64,000 nucleotides of DNA from Alphaproteobacteria bacterium (GTDB lineage: Bacteria; Pseudomonadota; Alphaproteobacteria; UBA828): positions 896,001 to 960,000 of the forward strand of contig CBDCCI010000002.1 of assembly GCA_965214705.1 (NCBI GenBank), read 5' to 3'. Shown here in pieces: positions 12,001 through 27,000 of the stretch. Each line of letters starts with the position of its first letter. The stretch's first letter is position 1. A program made the position numbers.

Positions 12001-15000
12001 GCCTTGCGGTCGCCCTCCAGGCCCAGGAGCTCGGCGGCCGCGCTGTCGTGGCGGAGCCAGCGGCTGGTATCACGCTCGCTGGCGGGATGGACCATCCTGG
12101 CGACGATCAGCGCGCTGGCGATGCGCCCGTCGCGGCCCTTGATGTCGAGGCCGTGGAGGATTTCGGCGAAGCCGAGGGCGTCGAGGGCCTTGAGGCACAG
12201 GCGCTCGCAGCCGACCGTGCGCGGGTTCTCGTGCTCCAGGGTATCGAGGTCGACGGTGGCGATGTCGGGCTTGCGCGCCTCTTCCTGCATCGCCTCGACG
12301 CGGAACCCCCTGGCCCTGAGCTTGGCGACGATGTCCTCGGCTGCGGCCCGCACATCCGCCTCGCCCTCGAACAGCGGCGGCTTGCCGTGAAGCAGCGCCT
12401 CGGCGAGTTCGGTGACGGCCTTCCACTTCTCGCGCGGCACCGGATAGTCGGTGCCGAGATTGAGCAGCGTCCTGTGGCGCACCTTGTCGCCGACGCGCTG
12501 GGCGAGCACGAGGCGATGGCTTCGGACCGGCTGGCCGGCCTTGTCGGTGTGTGTCCTGGTTGCCTTGATGTACATGGCGGCGCCGTTTCTGCGATGCCTG
12601 TTTCGCATACACGGCGTTCGCGGCATCTGGCAAGAGGGATATCGACTCAACTCCAAAGTCCTGGCCCCACAATTGGCTTCCAGGACCACGAATGGCAAAT
12701 GTGGGTCTCAGGTGTCCTCCAACCCCAACATCTAGTGGTTCAGCGCCGCAAAACTGGCTCGAACAGGCTCGGCTGGTCGGAAAAAGTGCCAACTTGGGGG
12801 AAGACCTGCTTGCACAGCTTGCCGCGACGCCCGCGGCGGGGCGCGAGGAACTCTTGGTGTCCTTCCTGCAACAGGAGGTGCAGGCGGTGCTGCGGCTGCC
12901 GTCGGCGCCGGCGCCGACGGTCGGCTTCTTCGACCTCGGCATGGATTCGCTGATGGCGGTCGAGCTGCGGAACCGCCTGAACCGGGCGTTCTCCGGCGCT
13001 TACGCGGCGCCTAACACGCTGGTGTGCACTAGCCTACACGATTTTTCAGTGCTCAGGGGCTGACGCAGGGTTGCAGTTCCCTCCTTTATTCGGGTTATGC
13101 TACAGTAGGTTACAGGAGAGGTCAAGGGGAAATAGAGCGGGGGTGGAGGACACATTGGCAGATCATGTGTCTTCCAGAAGTTGCATTCAGGGAAGTCGGG
13201 GCGTGGAATTTGCCGTGGAGAACTGGTATGGTTTCTGTGCTGAGACTGGATAATTCAGTCAGGACACACGAATGGCATGCAATTGCAGTTGCGAGGAATA
13301 TCATAGGAGTTTCGTGATCTGTCCTGCATTGCGGAGGAGCCGCGTGTCGCGGTTACAGAAGGTCCCTACGGGCGGATGGCCACGATGAGGGAGGATACTA
13401 GCGGACGGCGCCAGCGCGCGGTCATGGCCACCGATGCGGAGTGGGAGCGCATCGGCCGGGCTGCGGCGGCTTGCGGTATGGACCTGTCTCGCTTCGTCAT
13501 CCATCGCGCTCTCGATCGCGATCCGCTGCCGCCGGAAGTCCTGCGCCGGGCGGTCCGCGAGATGCTGGTGATGTCCAGGCTGGAGGAGAGGCGGCTACGC
13601 GGGGCGGGCGCCGGCGAGGCCTGGGAGGACGCCTGCGACGCGGTGGACGAATGGATGGAGCGCGAGAGCATGCTCGACCGGCTCACCGATCCAGGTGCTG
13701 CGAACCGCTGGAAGGCGGCGGGGCGGGTTGAGGAGGACGGGTCGTGACGGAGGAGGCGGCACGGCCGCTCAGGCGTCAGCGAAGCCTGCACTGCAAGCCG
13801 GCTGAACAGGCGATGATCCGGGAGCGCGCGGCGGCGGCGGAGAAGACCGTGTCGCGCTATATTCTGGATCTCGCGCTCGCCGACGATCCGGACCGCCATC
13901 CGCTGGTGCTGACTGAAGCGGAACAGGTGGAGCAGCGGGACGGGGTGCGGGAGTTGCAGGCATTCGTGCGGGCTCTCCGGCGCGAGCTTCCGGGGGGCAG
14001 CGGGCTGAGCCTTCTGAGCGCGATCTCCGTCCTCGCGAGGGAGCGTGCGCTGTGAGACGGACGCGGCGTCGGCGGAAGGCGCGCAGGCCGAGCAGGCACA
14101 TCTCGATTTCGGCGACGGACGCGGAGTGGGAGACCGTTCGCAACAAGGCCGACCAGCGCGGGCTGTCGATCGCGCGCTACCTGCTGGAGCTGGTGGAGCG
14201 GGACGGCTCGGAAGAGGACACTGGTCTCCGGCACGAGTGGCCCGCGTTGGCGCTGGCAAAGGACGAGCAGCGGGAGCAGCTGGAGGCGCTGCGGGAGGTT
14301 CGCGCGCTGATGCTGGAGGGGGAGGATGCGGGTCCGCTTGTGCGCGACATGCAGGAGAGGATCGCGGTGATGTTCGCCGCCTGGGCGTCCGCGATGGCCG
14401 GGGCGGGCCGCTCGGAAGAGCTGCGCATGGCGCTCGCCTCGGTGCTGGGCGAGGAGCGGGCACGCATCGCTGCGGCGTCGGTCGTGACCTCGGTCACGGT
14501 TTCGACCGAGCCGCCGGCAGCGAAGAAGGAGGTCGCGCCTGAGTCCCGCGAGGGAAAGGCGGACGCCGGCCAGGACCGGCTCTTGTGAGGCGGGCACCAT
14601 GTGCGCCACGGTCCCTATCGAGGTGCAGAGAATCGTCGGTACAAGGGGAGAGACAACGTGATTGCGGGATGCGGCGGCAGAAGCGAAAGGTCGCGCTTCA
14701 GGCCCACAACGGGAAGACGGACTTGCGCCTATACCGTTTGCTGTGAGGCGGCCTCCATGTGCGCCACCGGCATGAACGAGGTGCACGAGATCGACCACAC
14801 GAGGGAACAATTGTCGTGACTGCGGAGCGCGACGGCAAGAGCGCGTGGACCGGCCAGCCGGACTTGCTGGCGAGCCTGCCGCCGGAGGGCCCGCCCGCTT
14901 CGCGGCCGGATCCCGGTATCGATCCTGCCGTGGTCGAGGAACTGCTCACCGAAGTCCGGGTCCTGCGGGAGCAGGTGGCCGGACTGAAGGAAGCGGTATC

Positions 15001-24000: not shown

Positions 24001-27000
24001 TTCGATCCGCGCCGCGGTGGAGAGCAGGCTACGTGGGGCGAGGCTCTATGGCGGCTTGACGAGGAGCAGTACGGGCGAGGACTTCGTCCCCAGCGGCGAA
24101 CCTCTGCAAGTTGTAGTGAACCTCGGCAGCGGCTTGTTTAGCGTTAGCGTGGGACTGCAAAAGCGCCTGTTTGATCCGATTACAGGGTTGCGGAGTTTTG
24201 CTTACGCGGATTATGGCGGCGGAGGCTATAGCAGTTTCGGTGCCGGTCCGCCGGAATTCGTGCATTCCGTACTCTCCGACCACTTGGATAGGTTTATCGC
24301 CGACTACCTGCGCGTCAACGCGGACGCGTGCGGCGGTCCGTCGGAGGTGGCGAAGTGATTGTTTGGACGGAATGCTACAGACGGTAGCATAAAGGATGAT
24401 TACAGCACGAGATGTCACTCGTTTGTTCCCGCCACGGTCTTTCGCGCCACCGCATGCCAAGCGCCTTATCCATACTTTGCGAGAGCAGGCAGCTTAATGA
24501 CTCTCAGATCGTGGTGCGGGTCGGAGAACGTCGTTCCCGCAACCTACAACCCCATGATGTTTGCGATGGCCCGGCCCACCCTCTCCGCGGCGTTCTCGAT
24601 ATCCCGGTCCCCGAGGTGAGCGTAGCGCAGCGTCATGCGTACGTTGGAGTGGCCGAGCAGCCGGGAGACTACCGGCACCGGCACGCCGTTCATCACCGCG
24701 TGGCTCGCCACGGTATGACGCAGGTCATGAAGGCGCACGTCCTCGATGCCGGCTTCACGCCGCACCCGGTACCAGAGAGCGAGATAGCGGCTGCGCGGCC
24801 GCGACGGGTCGCGCGGCGAGGGAAAGACGAAGGGGCTTGTCCCGCGCGGCTGACGCCCGAGAACCGCGCGGGCCTTGGTGTTGAGAGGAACCGTCCTCCG
24901 GCCCGTCTTGCTTTCCTGGAGGATCAGGCGGTGGTCGTCGACTTCCGACCAGCGGAGCTGCACGATCTCGCCCCTGCGGCACCCGGTCAGAAGCAGCAGG
25001 CGGACGATGTCGGCCTGCTGCCGCTGGTCGCTTCCCGTTTGTCGGTCAAGCGCGCGGTGCAGACGATCGACTTCCTTGCGCGACAGGAAGCGGGTGAGCA
25101 CCGGGCGCCGGTTTCTCTGTATGTCGCGGGCCGGGTTGGTGTCGATGTGGCCGCGGGCGGCGGCGAAGTTCAGGATCTGCCGCAGGAGGGCGAGACCGTG
25201 ATTGGCGTTGCCGGGGGCGGTGCGGCTGAAGTCGTCGAACCAGCGTCTGATCTCGGCCGGGGAGATGCGGTCGAGCCGCTTCGAGCCGAAGGCCGGCAGG
25301 ATGCGGACGTCGAGCAGGCACCGGAAGGCACTCCTGGACGAAGGCTTGTATCTGTCGAAGTTGGCCTCCTTCCACTCGCCGGCGACAAAGTCGCGCAACA
25401 GGGGAACGGCACGCTTGGGAGCGGCCCTGTCCTCCGGTTCCGGCGCGGCCTGGCGGGCGAGGCAAGCGCGGCGCGCCTCGGCGACGCTCATGGTCTCCAC
25501 CGGGCCGAGCGAGATGCGTCTCGATCCGTCTGCGCTTTGCCGCAAGAGGACCCAGCTCTTTCCTCCGGTAGCTCGGACCCGGACCCCGAGCCCGCGCACC
25601 GTGGTATCCCAGACGGTATATTCCCGCTCGCCGGGCTGCAGCCGAGACACGGCGGCGTCGGTGATGCGCACGCGTTTCGGTCCTGCCATGGCTTACTCTC
25701 CTAACGCCTTTCCGACGATTTCTGCGGCATCGGCGACCATGCTGTCGGCGAGGTGCGTGTACTTGAGAGTGGTCTCGGGGCTCGCATGACCGAGCAGGCG
25801 TCCGATGGCGAGGACGGTGACGCCCTGCCTGAGTGCGATGCTGGCATGCGTGTGTCGAAGATCGTGAAGGCGCACGTCAGTCAATCCGGCCTCGGCACGG
25901 AGCCTGTGCCAGAAGTGGTCGAGCGCGCCCGGCTCGGGCGGTTGGGCTCGATGCGGGGCCGCGAACACCCAGGGACCCTTCCGCTCCAGGTCGTCGAGGA
26001 CGTCACGCGCGGGCTGCGACAGCCAGACGGTTCTGGGGCCGGACTTGCTATCGCGCAGGAAGAGGTGTCCCTCGCGGTAGTCGGACCATCGGAGGCCCAG
26101 CATCTCCCCTTTCCGGCATCCGGTCAGCAGCAGGAGGCGGATTGTTGCGACATGCCGCGGGAAGCGCTCCGCATGCGCGGACAGCTGCGCCGACAGGCGG
26201 CGAATCTCGTCGTCGGAGAGAAAACGCTCACGCCCCTTGCGGCGATAGCGCCGGATGCCCCGGCAGGGGTTGGAGCCCTCGGGCCTGAGCCCCGCCACCT
26301 CGGCCTCGCGCATGATGACCGACAGGACCGGCATCGACCTGTCGGCCGCGACCGGGGTGGCGCGGAGCGCGGCGAACCAGTCATGCACCTCGTGGCGGTC
26401 GATCTCGGCAACCGGGCGACCGGCGAAGTGAGGCAGAATCTGGTTCTTGAGATAGCGCCGGTTGACCGCCAGCGTGCGCCGCTTCCACAGTCGTTCGTAT
26501 TGCAGGAACACGGTCTCGGCGAAATCCTCGAAGAGCGTTTCCCCGGCCGCGGAATCCCCTTCACCCCGCCTGATGGCGGCGAGCATCCCGCGGGCGCGGG
26601 CGCGCGCCTCGTCAACGCCGGTCTCTGCGGCGTCACCGACGATCTTCCAGGCGCGCTCCCCGTCGTGCTGGCAATGGATGAAGAAGCGCTTGCGGCCCGA
26701 GGGCAGCACGCGGATGCCGAAGCCTTTGAGCTTGCCGTCCCGGACATCGCGGGCTGTCTTGCGGGGCCTGAGTGCCCGCACGCGGGCGTCGGTGAGGGTC
26801 GTTCCGGCCATGGCGTCTCTCCCGGCTGCGGTTGCAGCCGGGGAACGTCGGGGTAGCCGATCCGTCCGGATGCAACAGATGTGGAGAGAAAAAGCGACCC
26901 TGTTTCAGTCCATTAGCACCGAAGGTGCGCACGCTGGTGTTCGATTATCCGAACATTTCCGTTCTCGCTGATCATCTGGTGGGGGAGCTTGGCGACGAGA

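Follow-up and report, generated by a model that had tools for sequence, protein, structure and literature searches.

E11 and some 40 relatives are integrative elements of one alphaproteobacterial genome and make up a much-multiplied family of mobile islands. E11 itself is a 13.9-kb insertion that interrupts a polyketide-synthase gene at positions 13015-26940 of the 64,000-nucleotide stretch of DNA analysed here (the window) and is flanked by an 11-bp direct repeat. Homology-guided conservative recombination by its two tyrosine recombinases, IntB and IntA, tolerant of mismatches in the overlap, probably explains the family, and the observations that bear most directly on this reading concern five variable bases that follow a constant ACACC.

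Boundaries and gene content of E11

The 11-mer CACGCTGGTGT stands at both edges of E11, at 13015-13025 (attR, on the left side in the window) and 26930-26940 (attL), exactly where the survey's finding had placed the boundaries. On the element strand the attR copy reads ACACC + AGCGT + G, and in the attL copy the complement of ACACC, GGTGT, lies at 26936-26940. Outside the repeats is host DNA: the left part of the carrier-protein region of the interrupted polyketide synthase (12799-13014, plus strand) and the continuation of that gene (26941-29609, plus strand). In the related genomes G006 and G017 the two flanks, 94-98% identical to the window, adjoin with a single copy of the 11-mer, so the claim that relatives hold an empty site is borne out. 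I also recovered the previously noted contig of sequencing run X1 that joins 13014 to 26930, skipping 13,915 bases and sharing 11 letters, at a depth of 5.24 and with 83 letters on the shorter side. The occupied junction is present in the same run on a contig of depth 4.84. The empty-site joint is absent from runs X2, X17 and X18, a circle (attP) junction was found in none of the four runs, and the X1 contig, the sole empty site from the same sample, might derive from a co-occurring strain without E11.

The conserved right end of E11 (13026-13375, minus strand), which recurs at about 14 loci at 72-83% identity, terminates on the element strand in ...TAGTGC|ACACC. Beside it lie two small candidates for NikA-like (ribbon-helix-helix) relaxosome accessory proteins, one at 13376-13747 (plus strand; PF21983, E 3.9e-5, 24.2 bits, short of the curated cut-off of 27) and one at 14052-14588 (plus strand; PF21983, E 8.7e-5, and a weak TraJ-like match, both below cut-off). 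A TrwC/TraI-type MOBF relaxase-helicase of 1592 aa follows (15559-20337, plus strand), with an AAA_30 domain and a relaxase domain that clears the curated MOBF cut-offs (PF08751, 250.1 bits; NF041492 MobF, 254.9 against 100; TIGR02686, 215.6 against 145.5). A cargo region with five ORFs (20340-24540, plus strand) has a low G+C content, 54-57% against 67-73% in its surroundings; it matched no Pfam or PADLOC family and has no second copy in the genome. Among the 11 ORFs of E11 that were scanned, no T4SS or coupling-protein family was found.

Towards the other edge lie intA (24544-25689, minus strand; 381 aa), the second tyrosine recombinase, intB (25693-26811, minus strand; 372 aa), the first, and then the conserved left end, which separates intB from the repeat (26812-26929, minus strand) and of which the genome holds 40 copies. 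E11 thus carries its own integration module, as an integrative mobilizable element (IME) does. IntB and IntA of E11 are 38% identical, and both are tyrosine recombinases by PF00589 (82.1 and 96.4 bits; curated cut-off 27.1). Each also has a PF13356 arm domain (41.2 and 35.6 bits; cut-off 27), so that both combine the arm-binding, SAM-like and catalytic domains of a P4-type heterobivalent integrase (in IntA: Phage_integrase, Arm-DNA-bind_3, Phage_int_M and SAM_3). The catalytic motifs (R, H-x-x-R, H and Y patterns), legible in the alignment of the E11 proteins and kept in both, are retained by all 29 of the full-length B proteins and by 31 of the 32 full-length A proteins, or 60 of 61 overall; judged by these motifs, the pair appears catalytically intact, as previously proposed.

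Terminal and sub-terminal inverted repeats are found at both ends of E11. The sub-terminal repeat, about 25 bp long, reads CTGACGCAGGGTTGCAGTTCCCTCC in its right copy (13060-13084), its partner standing inverted at 26883-26908, as read directly from the sequence, and is a candidate recombinase-binding site. A terminal hairpin, GCACC-3 nt-GGTGC (26916-26928), is present in 36 of 36 ends and is a candidate for the inverted repeat of the relaxase (oriT), the core recombinase site, or both.

Distribution of the family

The genome has 36 occurrences of the pattern ACACS-N7-GCACCTNCGGTKCTA, with ACACS at -12 in 36 of 36 cores, and the reversed control has 0, which reproduces all the exact left junctions counted before; a profile search found 40 left ends, namely these 36 and four degenerate ones. 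The 45 tandem recombinase pairs were likewise found again, 26 of them in the order B>A under my own pairing rule (24 in the earlier count). The gap between intB and intA is 3 nt in 25 of the 26, and across these pairs no genes other than intB-intA constantly adjoin the conserved end. Both junctions are backed by paralogs or orthologs in 16 elements, compared with 13 previously mapped from paralogs; intact paralogs match the sites of 12 elements, and related genomes provide empty sites with one repeat copy for three elements besides E11. Right ends fall into at least four kinds (13 of type 1 by a strict pattern), so the right half-site proposed below is not constant.

All this agrees with the earlier description of a diversified integrative family, led by intB-intA, whose 10-12-bp repeats start with ACAC(C/G) and whose members often sit in repeated DNA and in one another's recombinase genes. 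Nor is the combination of end and gene pair confined to this genome: as had been claimed, it recurs elsewhere: two named MAG records have it, as do 14 of 20 further species in the genus and, within the class, 2 of 400 further genomes sampled.

What the two junctions share

The survey had insertion occurring at ACACC sites. This stands insofar as ACAC(C/G) is constant, and indeed nothing else is conserved among 34 unique target sites, but ACACC is not the whole address, as the next five bases also match. In 18 elements the 5-mers after ACACC at cognate ends agree at five of five positions in 11, at four in three and at three in four, whereas non-cognate pairs share a mean of 1.46 of 5 and reach three or more matches in 14.7%. 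The agreement goes well beyond chance and, because all 18 cognate pairs share at least three of the five bases, homology evidently guides site choice.

The remaining 7 of the 18 elements, whose 5-mers differ between the ends at one or two positions, have junctions with differing overlap (coupling) sequences. Three of these were verified against empty sites, and each holds the 5-mer of its target at one junction and a foreign 5-mer at the other (left in one, right in two). At C3:1751265 the target GCTCG (98-99.5% identical ortholog, 100% identical paralog) is kept at attL, and attR carries TCGCG, the 5-mer at the target of C1:2483543, which belongs to the same subfamily. At C1:1456150 the target GGACG (two relatives) is kept at attL, and attR carries TGACG, the repeat 5-mer of its nearest sister, C3:512989, which is 98.6% identical; the foreign 5-mer therefore equals the site of a sister copy twice. 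At C1:2483543 the target TCGCG (four relatives) is at attR and GCGCG at attL. The relatives at the C1:1456150 site have GCACC instead of ACACC, and one additional difference must therefore be assumed there. For the other four imperfect pairs, the ortholog search gave no ortholog, or none at the junction.

Since cognate 5-mers match, and a foreign 5-mer appears where the ends differ, I read the repeats as the overlap that the two sites share in a conservative recombination and not as target-site duplications. The alternative, ordinary transposition with a true 10-12-bp duplication that later decayed in some copies, could account for the 11 of 18 elements whose repeats are perfect and vary in sequence. 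It is nevertheless highly improbable: the elements have no conserved transposase in common, the internal DDE and IS110 genes being separate insertion sequences, the foreign 5-mers equal the sites of sister copies, and in C3:1751265 two of five repeat positions differ even though the flank matches the paralog at 100% identity over about 550 bp. In two of the three verified cases the mismatch is a single base and, since copies in that subfamily differ by 1.4-3%, mutation after insertion may be the source in these two.

In short, the variable 5-mers act as an overlap would in conservative recombination by tyrosine recombinases, which is new here. The paralogous IntB and IntA, probably jointly and perhaps as a heteromer, would recombine the joined ends of the element, predicted to read ...AGTGC-ACACC-N5-RC-GCACC..., with a chromosomal site. 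The predicted cleavage positions would delimit an exchange region that includes ACC and the five variable bases, between imperfect inverted half-sites RGTGCRC. The portion of the target read by protein would be hardly more than ACAC(C/G), with a strong preference for sites that continue with five bases matching the 5-mer imported from the last site of the element. One or two mismatches in the overlap would be tolerated, and a mismatched hop would leave the 5-mer of the target at one junction and the imported one at the other, as expected if a heteroduplex overlap were resolved by replication into mixed junctions, in the manner proposed for Tn916 and CTnDOT. With junctions taking up imported and target 5-mers in this way, the preferred address would drift from hop to hop. 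Hops among copies of one insertion sequence would yield perfect 10-12-bp repeats; 7 of the 11 elements with perfect repeats lie in DNA with at least nine paralogous copies, compared with none of the seven imperfect ones, and three elements occupy one and the same 10-mer, each in its own copy of a single insertion sequence.

Strand-biased copy-out/copy-in, in the style of SE, GInts and Tn554, would exchange one strand, leave the donor in place and always deposit the footprint of the left flank at the new right junction. SE-type elements too have two tyrosine recombinases, and a 6-bp footprint that is not a duplication, according to the portions of PMC10214605 consulted; about 40 copies per genome are compatible with replicative spread, and two of the three verified elements carry the foreign 5-mer at attR. 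In C1:2483543, however, it is at attL, and 11 of 18 elements have one and the same 5-mer at the two ends. The SE model also needs tfp between intA and intB, plus srap, whereas 3 nt separate the two genes in this family, and SEs are described in those portions as restricted to Gammaproteobacteria and as leaving no empty site (PMC10214605), whereas E11 has its empty-site contig. I therefore regard this route as unlikely.

A relaxase in some of the copies

One earlier statement fails: the elements do not each end with a TrwC module, for only 8 of the 18 mapped elements enclose a TrwC relaxase domain and 10 are without a relaxase. Pfam detected no relaxase family in 95 ORFs of five TrwC-less regions. 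Some elements thus carry their own MOBF (TrwC) relaxase and the remainder retain the ends and recombinases only, so that many copies are mobilizable in trans at best.

The stem of the constant end hairpin is identical to IR2 in the R388 oligonucleotide printed in PMC4176350. Read on the other strand, the one that codes for trwC, each left junction has the form hairpin-7 nt-GGTGT, which resembles an F-type nick site. Because the pattern GCACC-N3-4-GGTKC has 83 further occurrences in this G+C-rich genome, the likeness to IR2 is a lead and not proof. The hairpin at the left end is probably the recognition repeat of the relaxase; if so, the oriT would abut or overlap the attachment core.

Such an arrangement raises the question of whether the relaxase itself integrates the DNA, a strand running from one GGTGT| nick to the next being joined by TrwC into a chromosomal GGTGT (ACACC), with the recombinases otherwise employed. 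The hairpin-7 nt-GGTGT of every left junction fits this, and for two TrwC genes outside the family the same strand shows, 1-2 kb downstream, GCACC-loop-GGTGC-4/5 nt-GGTGT|GAG. The nick made by F TraI falls after ...GGTGT|GGTGC, as quoted from PMC3074121; a purine follows GGTGT in 26 of 34 targets, and R388 requires a purine after the nick (PMC4176350); and integration at nic-like targets is possible for TrwC, according to a passage of PMC3264647. This route, however, predicts the 5-mer of the donor always at attL and that of the target at attR, the opposite of two of the three verified cases, and it leaves the matching of 5-mers unexplained. Moreover, the relaxase is missing from 10 of 18 mapped elements, whereas intB-intA is constant and intact, and a recombinase synapse would suit the inverted repeats at both ends. 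Relaxase-driven integration is thus very doubtful, and recombination by IntB and IntA is the reading retained below.

E11 shares with R388 and F a MobF-family relaxase, the hairpin stem of R388 IR2 and the GGTGT that precedes the F nick. It differs in the spacer between hairpin and GGTGT, which is 7 nt here with five of them variable, and in the predicted site lying at the extreme edge of the integrated element.

Relation to described elements

The closest precedent is MTnPi1-3, mobilizable transposons of Prevotella intermedia that, as described in parts of PMC4755523 and PMC5704250, combine two tandem tyrosine integrases with a relaxase and occur in several copies per genome at similar 11-bp att sequences, sometimes inside an integrase gene. 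This reduces the novelty implied by the survey, and the family is a variant within the precedent of tandem-integrase mobilizable transposons; what is new is the overlap behaviour of the 5-mers, the foreign 5-mers and the likeness of the hairpin to IR2. Compared by published description, and not by sequence, the two also differ: MTnPi belongs to a Bacteroidota species, its integrases are described as without significant homology to each other (IntB and IntA are 38% identical paralogs), it carries a primase and, per the portion of a review at hand, prefers AT-rich sites (PMC5704250), and its excision is reported to have been shown by PCR, whereas the present family is known from sequence.

In junction behaviour the family resembles CTnDOT and Tn916, whose two junctions may likewise carry different coupling sequences; its integrase domain set is P4-like. 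Those elements have a single integrase and are conjugative; the E11 family has an integrase pair and is at most mobilizable. The overlaps of CTnDOT and Tn916 are usually unrelated, whereas in this family at least three of five bases agree in 18 of 18 cognate pairs. IntDOT of CTnDOT, in the published excerpt, tolerates overlap mismatches and requires identical bases only beside the first cleavage (PMC2817482), and by analogy a constant ACC followed by variable bases would fit such a rule.

SE, GInts, Tn554 and RIT likewise have tyrosine recombinase genes side by side at one end and carry a footprint from the previous site, as far as the consulted sections of PMC10214605 and PMC3414803 describe them. 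Their gene sets (intA-tfp-intB-srap, ginABCD, tnpABC and three rit genes, respectively) include no relaxase among the genes described there, whereas E11 has TrwC, and the SE-type footprint is 6 bp on a fixed side, whereas the foreign 5-mer here is on either side. I considered and rejected identity with SE (no gene between intB and intA, a foreign 5-mer at attL in one of three, an empty-site contig) and with RIT (two recombinase genes only, against the three neighbouring genes ritA, ritB and ritC, which overlap one another, in the published description).

Finally, overlap-determined site choice has precedents in phages. The site-affinity mutants of lambda behave in this respect like phage mv4 Int. 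The specificity of the latter resides largely in a 7-bp overlap, and an altered overlap retargets the enzyme, according to the sections consulted (bioRxiv 10.1101/2023.11.06.565760). Those are laboratory results on single-copy phages, whereas retargeting via the overlap appears here to have been repeated in nature, within one genome.

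A family of paired-recombinase elements

The genome studied here (three contigs, C1 to C3; 7.92 Mb, 67% G+C) is unusually rich in mobile DNA. Other species of the genus have genomes of 2.8-6.3 Mb against 7.9 Mb here, the marker 'contamination' is 8.7%, and a tblastn search with the TrwC (MOBF) relaxase domain gives 34 matches. The survey's picture of a diversified family of elements, each led by the tandem tyrosine recombinase genes intB and intA, is largely right; the family is real and well delimited. The left-junction pattern occurs 36 times, ACAC(C/G) stands seven bases upstream in 36/36 cores, and the reversed-pattern control gives 0, exactly the counts reported before; a profile search with the conserved end recovers 40 copies. 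The 45 tandem pairs of the survey were also found again. They come from 119 open reading frames (ORFs) with a score of 90 bits or more against IntA or IntB, and 26 of the pairs are of the type in which intB precedes intA (B>A), with a 3-nt gap in 25/26. Catalytic motifs are retained in 29/29 full-length B and 31/32 full-length A proteins. Some 70 ORFs of 346 aa, at ~25 bits to IntA, were judged spurious; they are without a Pfam family, and both copies scanned overlap another gene (an IS66 transposase gene on the opposite strand and an integrase gene, respectively). A second set of 14 tandem pairs scores only ~150-220 bits to both IntA and IntB (for example at C2:32945-35392, C3:303452-306037 and C3:2284709-2287102) and is probably another family of paired-recombinase elements.

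Anatomy and insertion of E11

The best-supported copy, E11, occupies positions 13015-26940 of the window, reads on the minus strand and is bounded at both ends by a direct repeat, the 11-mer CACGCTGGTGT (13015-13025 and 26930-26940). In element orientation its left end is ACACC-AGCGTGC-GCACCTTCGGTGCTA.... The intB gene (25693-26811, minus strand, 372 aa) is followed by intA (24544-25689, minus strand, 381 aa), which starts 3 nt past the intB stop; the two proteins are paralogs of 38% identity, each with arm-binding, SAM-like and catalytic domains in a Pfam scan. The cargo (20340-24540, ~4 kb) comprises five ORFs of low G+C (54-57%), for none of which Pfam and PADLOC scans returned a family. 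One of them, at 20776-21237, starts much as a secreted protein does. On the strand opposite to intB and intA lies a gene for a TrwC/TraI-type relaxase-helicase (15559-20337, 1592 aa), which scores above the cut-off in the NCBI MobF and relax_trwC models, and two small NikA-like ORFs share its strand. The left 2.4 kb of E11 occurs 20-39 times in the genome and its right part in 3-20 copies; the cargo is unique.

E11 is an insertion. In two related genomes, G006 and G017, the two flanking sequences (94-98% identity to the window) meet at one copy of the 11-mer, and the reading frame is intact. One contig of sequencing run X1 passes from 13014 straight to 26930 and so leaves out 13,915 bases, with 11 letters shared (depth 5.24, shorter side 83 letters). 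The relatives and the contig together bear out the empty site that the survey had described. The occupied junction is also spanned in X1 (contig depth 4.84). Runs X2, X17 and X18 contain the occupied form only, in contig data from which rare forms drop out, and a circle joint 26929/13026 was found in none of the four runs, again among contigs that lose rare forms. Contigs of X17 and X18 (depth 72-120) lead from 25166 back to 15119 through 32 letters of other sequence. I rejected this joint as a circle of E11; it probably derives from other copies, most likely a family member with a different middle part.

The gene that E11 interrupts, in its carrier-protein region, encodes a polyketide synthase. 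An insertion sequence end at ~12415-12798, 216 bp to the left of E11, lies in the same gene, which is therefore broken twice; the insertion sequence ending at 12798 is present at ~19 other places in the genome in near-identical form (99-100%).

Ends, mapping and nesting

The termini of the elements are mutually inverted (GCACCT... and ...AGTGC). Right ends are of several kinds: 13 match the strict pattern ...TA(A/G)GTGC directly before ACACC (type 1), four belong to a second type with ...TTTAGGACC before ACACC, and two further ones are unique. A block of ~25 bp (CTGA.. AGGGTYGC ..CTCC) lies ~23 nt inside the left end and, inverted, ~35 nt inside the type-1 right end.

Of the 36 left flanks, 23 have paralogs at other genomic positions, and in 14 of those 23 a paralog running through the site yielded a right junction, of which 12 were accepted and two rejected as artefacts. 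The rejected junctions were that of C1:381024 (elements are named by contig and left-junction position) at 4.3 kb, merely a like site in a paralogous recombinase gene, and that of C3:2067562 at 132 kb, merely another intact copy of an insertion sequence. Both junctions are thus supported in 16 elements, namely the 12 accepted, E11, the nested C1:381024 and two checked against relatives; two unverified elements complete the mapped set of 18.

The family's own recombinase gene appears to be one of its targets. The element at C1:381024-365446 sits inside intA of the element at C1:382350-360404, and family members are inserted at the codons for E-Y-T-V-W of intA. These codons, in the arm-binding domain, contain ACACC-GTCT(G/T), a junction 10-mer that occurs twice in genome G346 as a sequence match of the 10-mer alone. 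At the right junction of the outer, 21.9-kb element (C1:360404-360475, minus strand) the 12-mer ACACCACCCGCG is present in six tandem copies, an amplification of the attachment core, against one copy in an intact paralog.

An optional relaxase

Each mapped element was said in the survey to end with a TrwC module, which is not so: a TrwC relaxase domain lies inside 8/18 mapped elements only, and no relaxase was detected when 95 ORFs of five regions without TrwC were scanned against Pfam. The relaxase is optional in this family. Cargo of the TrwC-less regions includes a prenyltransferase/GtrA/FAD cluster, a UvrD-like helicase with a PD-(D/E)XK nuclease and a WYL protein, a carbamoyltransferase, a TbpB-like lipoprotein with its SLAM partner (an assembly protein), and many insertion sequences. 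At C1:1442127-1456150 and C3:1762000-1780870, sister elements have among their cargo a carbamoyltransferase beside an SxtJ-domain protein, and another element has the TbpB-like lipoprotein and SLAM protein.

The five bases after ACACC

The 34 unique left junctions have ACAC[CG] as their sole conserved part, with a pyrimidine at position -1 in 26/34 and C at position +6 in just 1/34; positions +11 and +12 (R, C) are the element's own. ACACC occurs 12,550 times in the genome and is thus by itself a weak address; the information lies in the five bases that follow. Cognate 5-mers (the five bases, N5, that follow ACACC) agree at 5/5 positions in 11 of the 18 mapped elements, at 4/5 in three and at 3/5 in four, whereas non-cognate pairs average 1.46/5 matches and just 14.7% reach 3. 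The survey's statement that only ACAC(C/G) is constant stands; ACACC is just the constant part of a ten-base address.

The imperfect repeats are not decayed duplications. Empty sites were verified for three of them, and in each one junction retains the target bases and the other bears imported bases. C3:1751265 entered GCTCG (known from a G006 ortholog of 98-99.5% identity and a 100% identical paralog), which it keeps at attL, the repeat at the intB-side end, and carries a foreign TCGCG at attR, the opposite end. C1:1456150 likewise keeps its target GGACG (two relatives) at attL and has a foreign TGACG at attR. In C1:2483543 the target TCGCG (four relatives) is at attR and a foreign GCGCG at attL, so that the imported side can be either end. 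Outside this verified set are two mismatched elements, C2:610217 (no orthologous empty site found in five relatives) and C3:1646569 (matches stop short of the junction), and also C1:3381557. Integration by the relaxase alone would always leave the donor 5-mer at attL, where C1:2483543 has it; this route is contradicted by the other two verified mismatched elements, which have it at attR.

Two of the foreign 5-mers are traceable to close kin. C3:512989, at 98.6% identity the sister nearest to C1:1456150, has TGACG as the 5-mer of its repeat, and TCGCG is the target 5-mer of C1:2483543, a member of the same 97% subfamily as C3:1751265. Further patterns agree with this: all seven left-junction 5-mers of that subfamily and both foreign ones end in CG. 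DNA with at least nine paralogous copies is the site of 7/11 perfect-repeat elements and of 0/7 imperfect ones, and one and the same 10-mer is occupied by three elements in three copies of a single insertion sequence.

A terminal hairpin and a possible oriT

Two nucleotides inside the left boundary, the motif GCACC-TNC-GGTKC forms a hairpin. Its stem is the same as IR2 of the R388 oriT oligonucleotide (PMC4176350), and E11 encodes a MobF relaxase. Read on the trwC-coding strand, every left junction is hairpin-7 nt-GGTGT; F TraI nicks between ...GGTGT and GGTGC (PMC3074121, oligonucleotide table). Outside the family, GCACC-loop-GGTGC-4/5 nt-GGTGT-GAG is found at three sites in this genome (C1:337148, C1:4084243 and C3:7682), which are candidate MOBF oriTs; two of the three lie 1-2 kb downstream of TrwC genes (45%-identity class) on the same strand. 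The shared stem, the GGTGT spacing, the F nick and the TrwC-linked sites together point to an oriT that probably adjoins or overlaps the attachment core, with the caution that hairpins of this form number 83 elsewhere in the genome, which is rich in G+C. A nick on the top strand of the element, 3' of the hairpin, was suggested by a likeness to ...TCT/ATAGC of R388 (nick at the slash) but is no longer preferred: the conserved CTGAC..AGGGT block at that place recurs in inverted form at the right end and may thus be a recombinase site.

Proposed mechanism

I infer the mechanism as a whole from sequence comparison. IntB and IntA would perform conservative recombination between the joined element ends and the target, within an exchange region that would contain ACC and N5 and be flanked by imperfect inverted half-sites. 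The first exchange would rely on identity at the constant ACC side, while N5 homology would be strongly preferred, though one or two mismatches in its centre would be tolerated. Where the overlap is mismatched, heteroduplex would arise at both junctions, to be sorted by replication into either arrangement. XerC and XerD are two recombinases that act together at dif, each handling one strand, and by analogy a heteromer of IntA and IntB with one partner per strand is a natural guess. The wider model is offered tentatively, and I hold it possible but rather doubtful: the five bases after ACACC would be a heritable, self-updating address, in which the two-recombinase machine reads only ACAC(C/G), the rest is chosen by homology to the overlap carried from the last site, and imperfect hops rewrite the address. 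In the same model the attachment core and a MOBF nick-like site (hairpin-7 nt-GGTGT) would form one composite site for excision, transfer and integration, in which the relaxase may take part.

Relation to known systems

This kind of element has precedent. The closest are mobilizable transposons of Prevotella intermedia, the MTnPi elements (PMC4755523, PMC5704250). They carry a tandem pair of tyrosine integrases and a relaxase, are present in several copies and have similar 11-bp att sites; their excision has been shown by PCR. Several recombinases side by side are also seen in SE, GInt, Tn554 and RIT elements, which differ in gene sets, fixed-side 6-bp footprints and hosts; BIM elements were dropped as a match, having one recombinase and an SMC-like protein and no recombinase pair. 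IntDOT is reported to need identity at the first cleavage and not beyond (PMC2817482). The overlap behaviour proposed here would resemble that of IntDOT and the Tn916 model to which the SE paper refers; unlike in either, homology clearly guides site choice here. The word 'tandem' is absent from the main text of a tyrosine recombinase survey (PMC8138268), and literature searches confined to full texts returned no description of this family. What is new is an alphaproteobacterial paralog-pair family with ~40 ends in one genome, sequence evidence that argues for homology-guided, drifting site choice, and the likely fusion of an attachment core with an oriT-like site.

If the model is true, this would be a natural recombinase targeted mostly by a short exchangeable overlap and not by protein contacts, and targeting set by the overlap is a property that engineers seek to build into integrases. 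The carried-over 5-mers would be a built-in record of which copy begot which, rare for mobile elements. The family helps to explain the repeat load of this 7.9-Mb genome and disrupts genes, among them a polyketide synthase and the recombinase genes of other family members. It also provides a test case for islands that retain no more than an oriT-like end and borrow the relaxases of relatives.

Distribution

The exact junction is present in 14/20 other species of the genus, which together have 50-odd copies, and in 0/23 genomes that represent nine further genera of the family (controls 0). A loosened pattern finds it in 2/400 other, evenly sampled genomes of the class, once in G029 and 11 times in G346 (controls 0). 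Three further genomes (G202, G321 and G358) have B>A pairs at 37-57% identity, at which family-type ends were not recognised. Two named MAG records (Defluviicoccus sp. and Alphaproteobacteria bacterium) carry the same junction with a B>A pair, and some 5-mers recur between species, such as ACACG-GAAAC in four other genomes.
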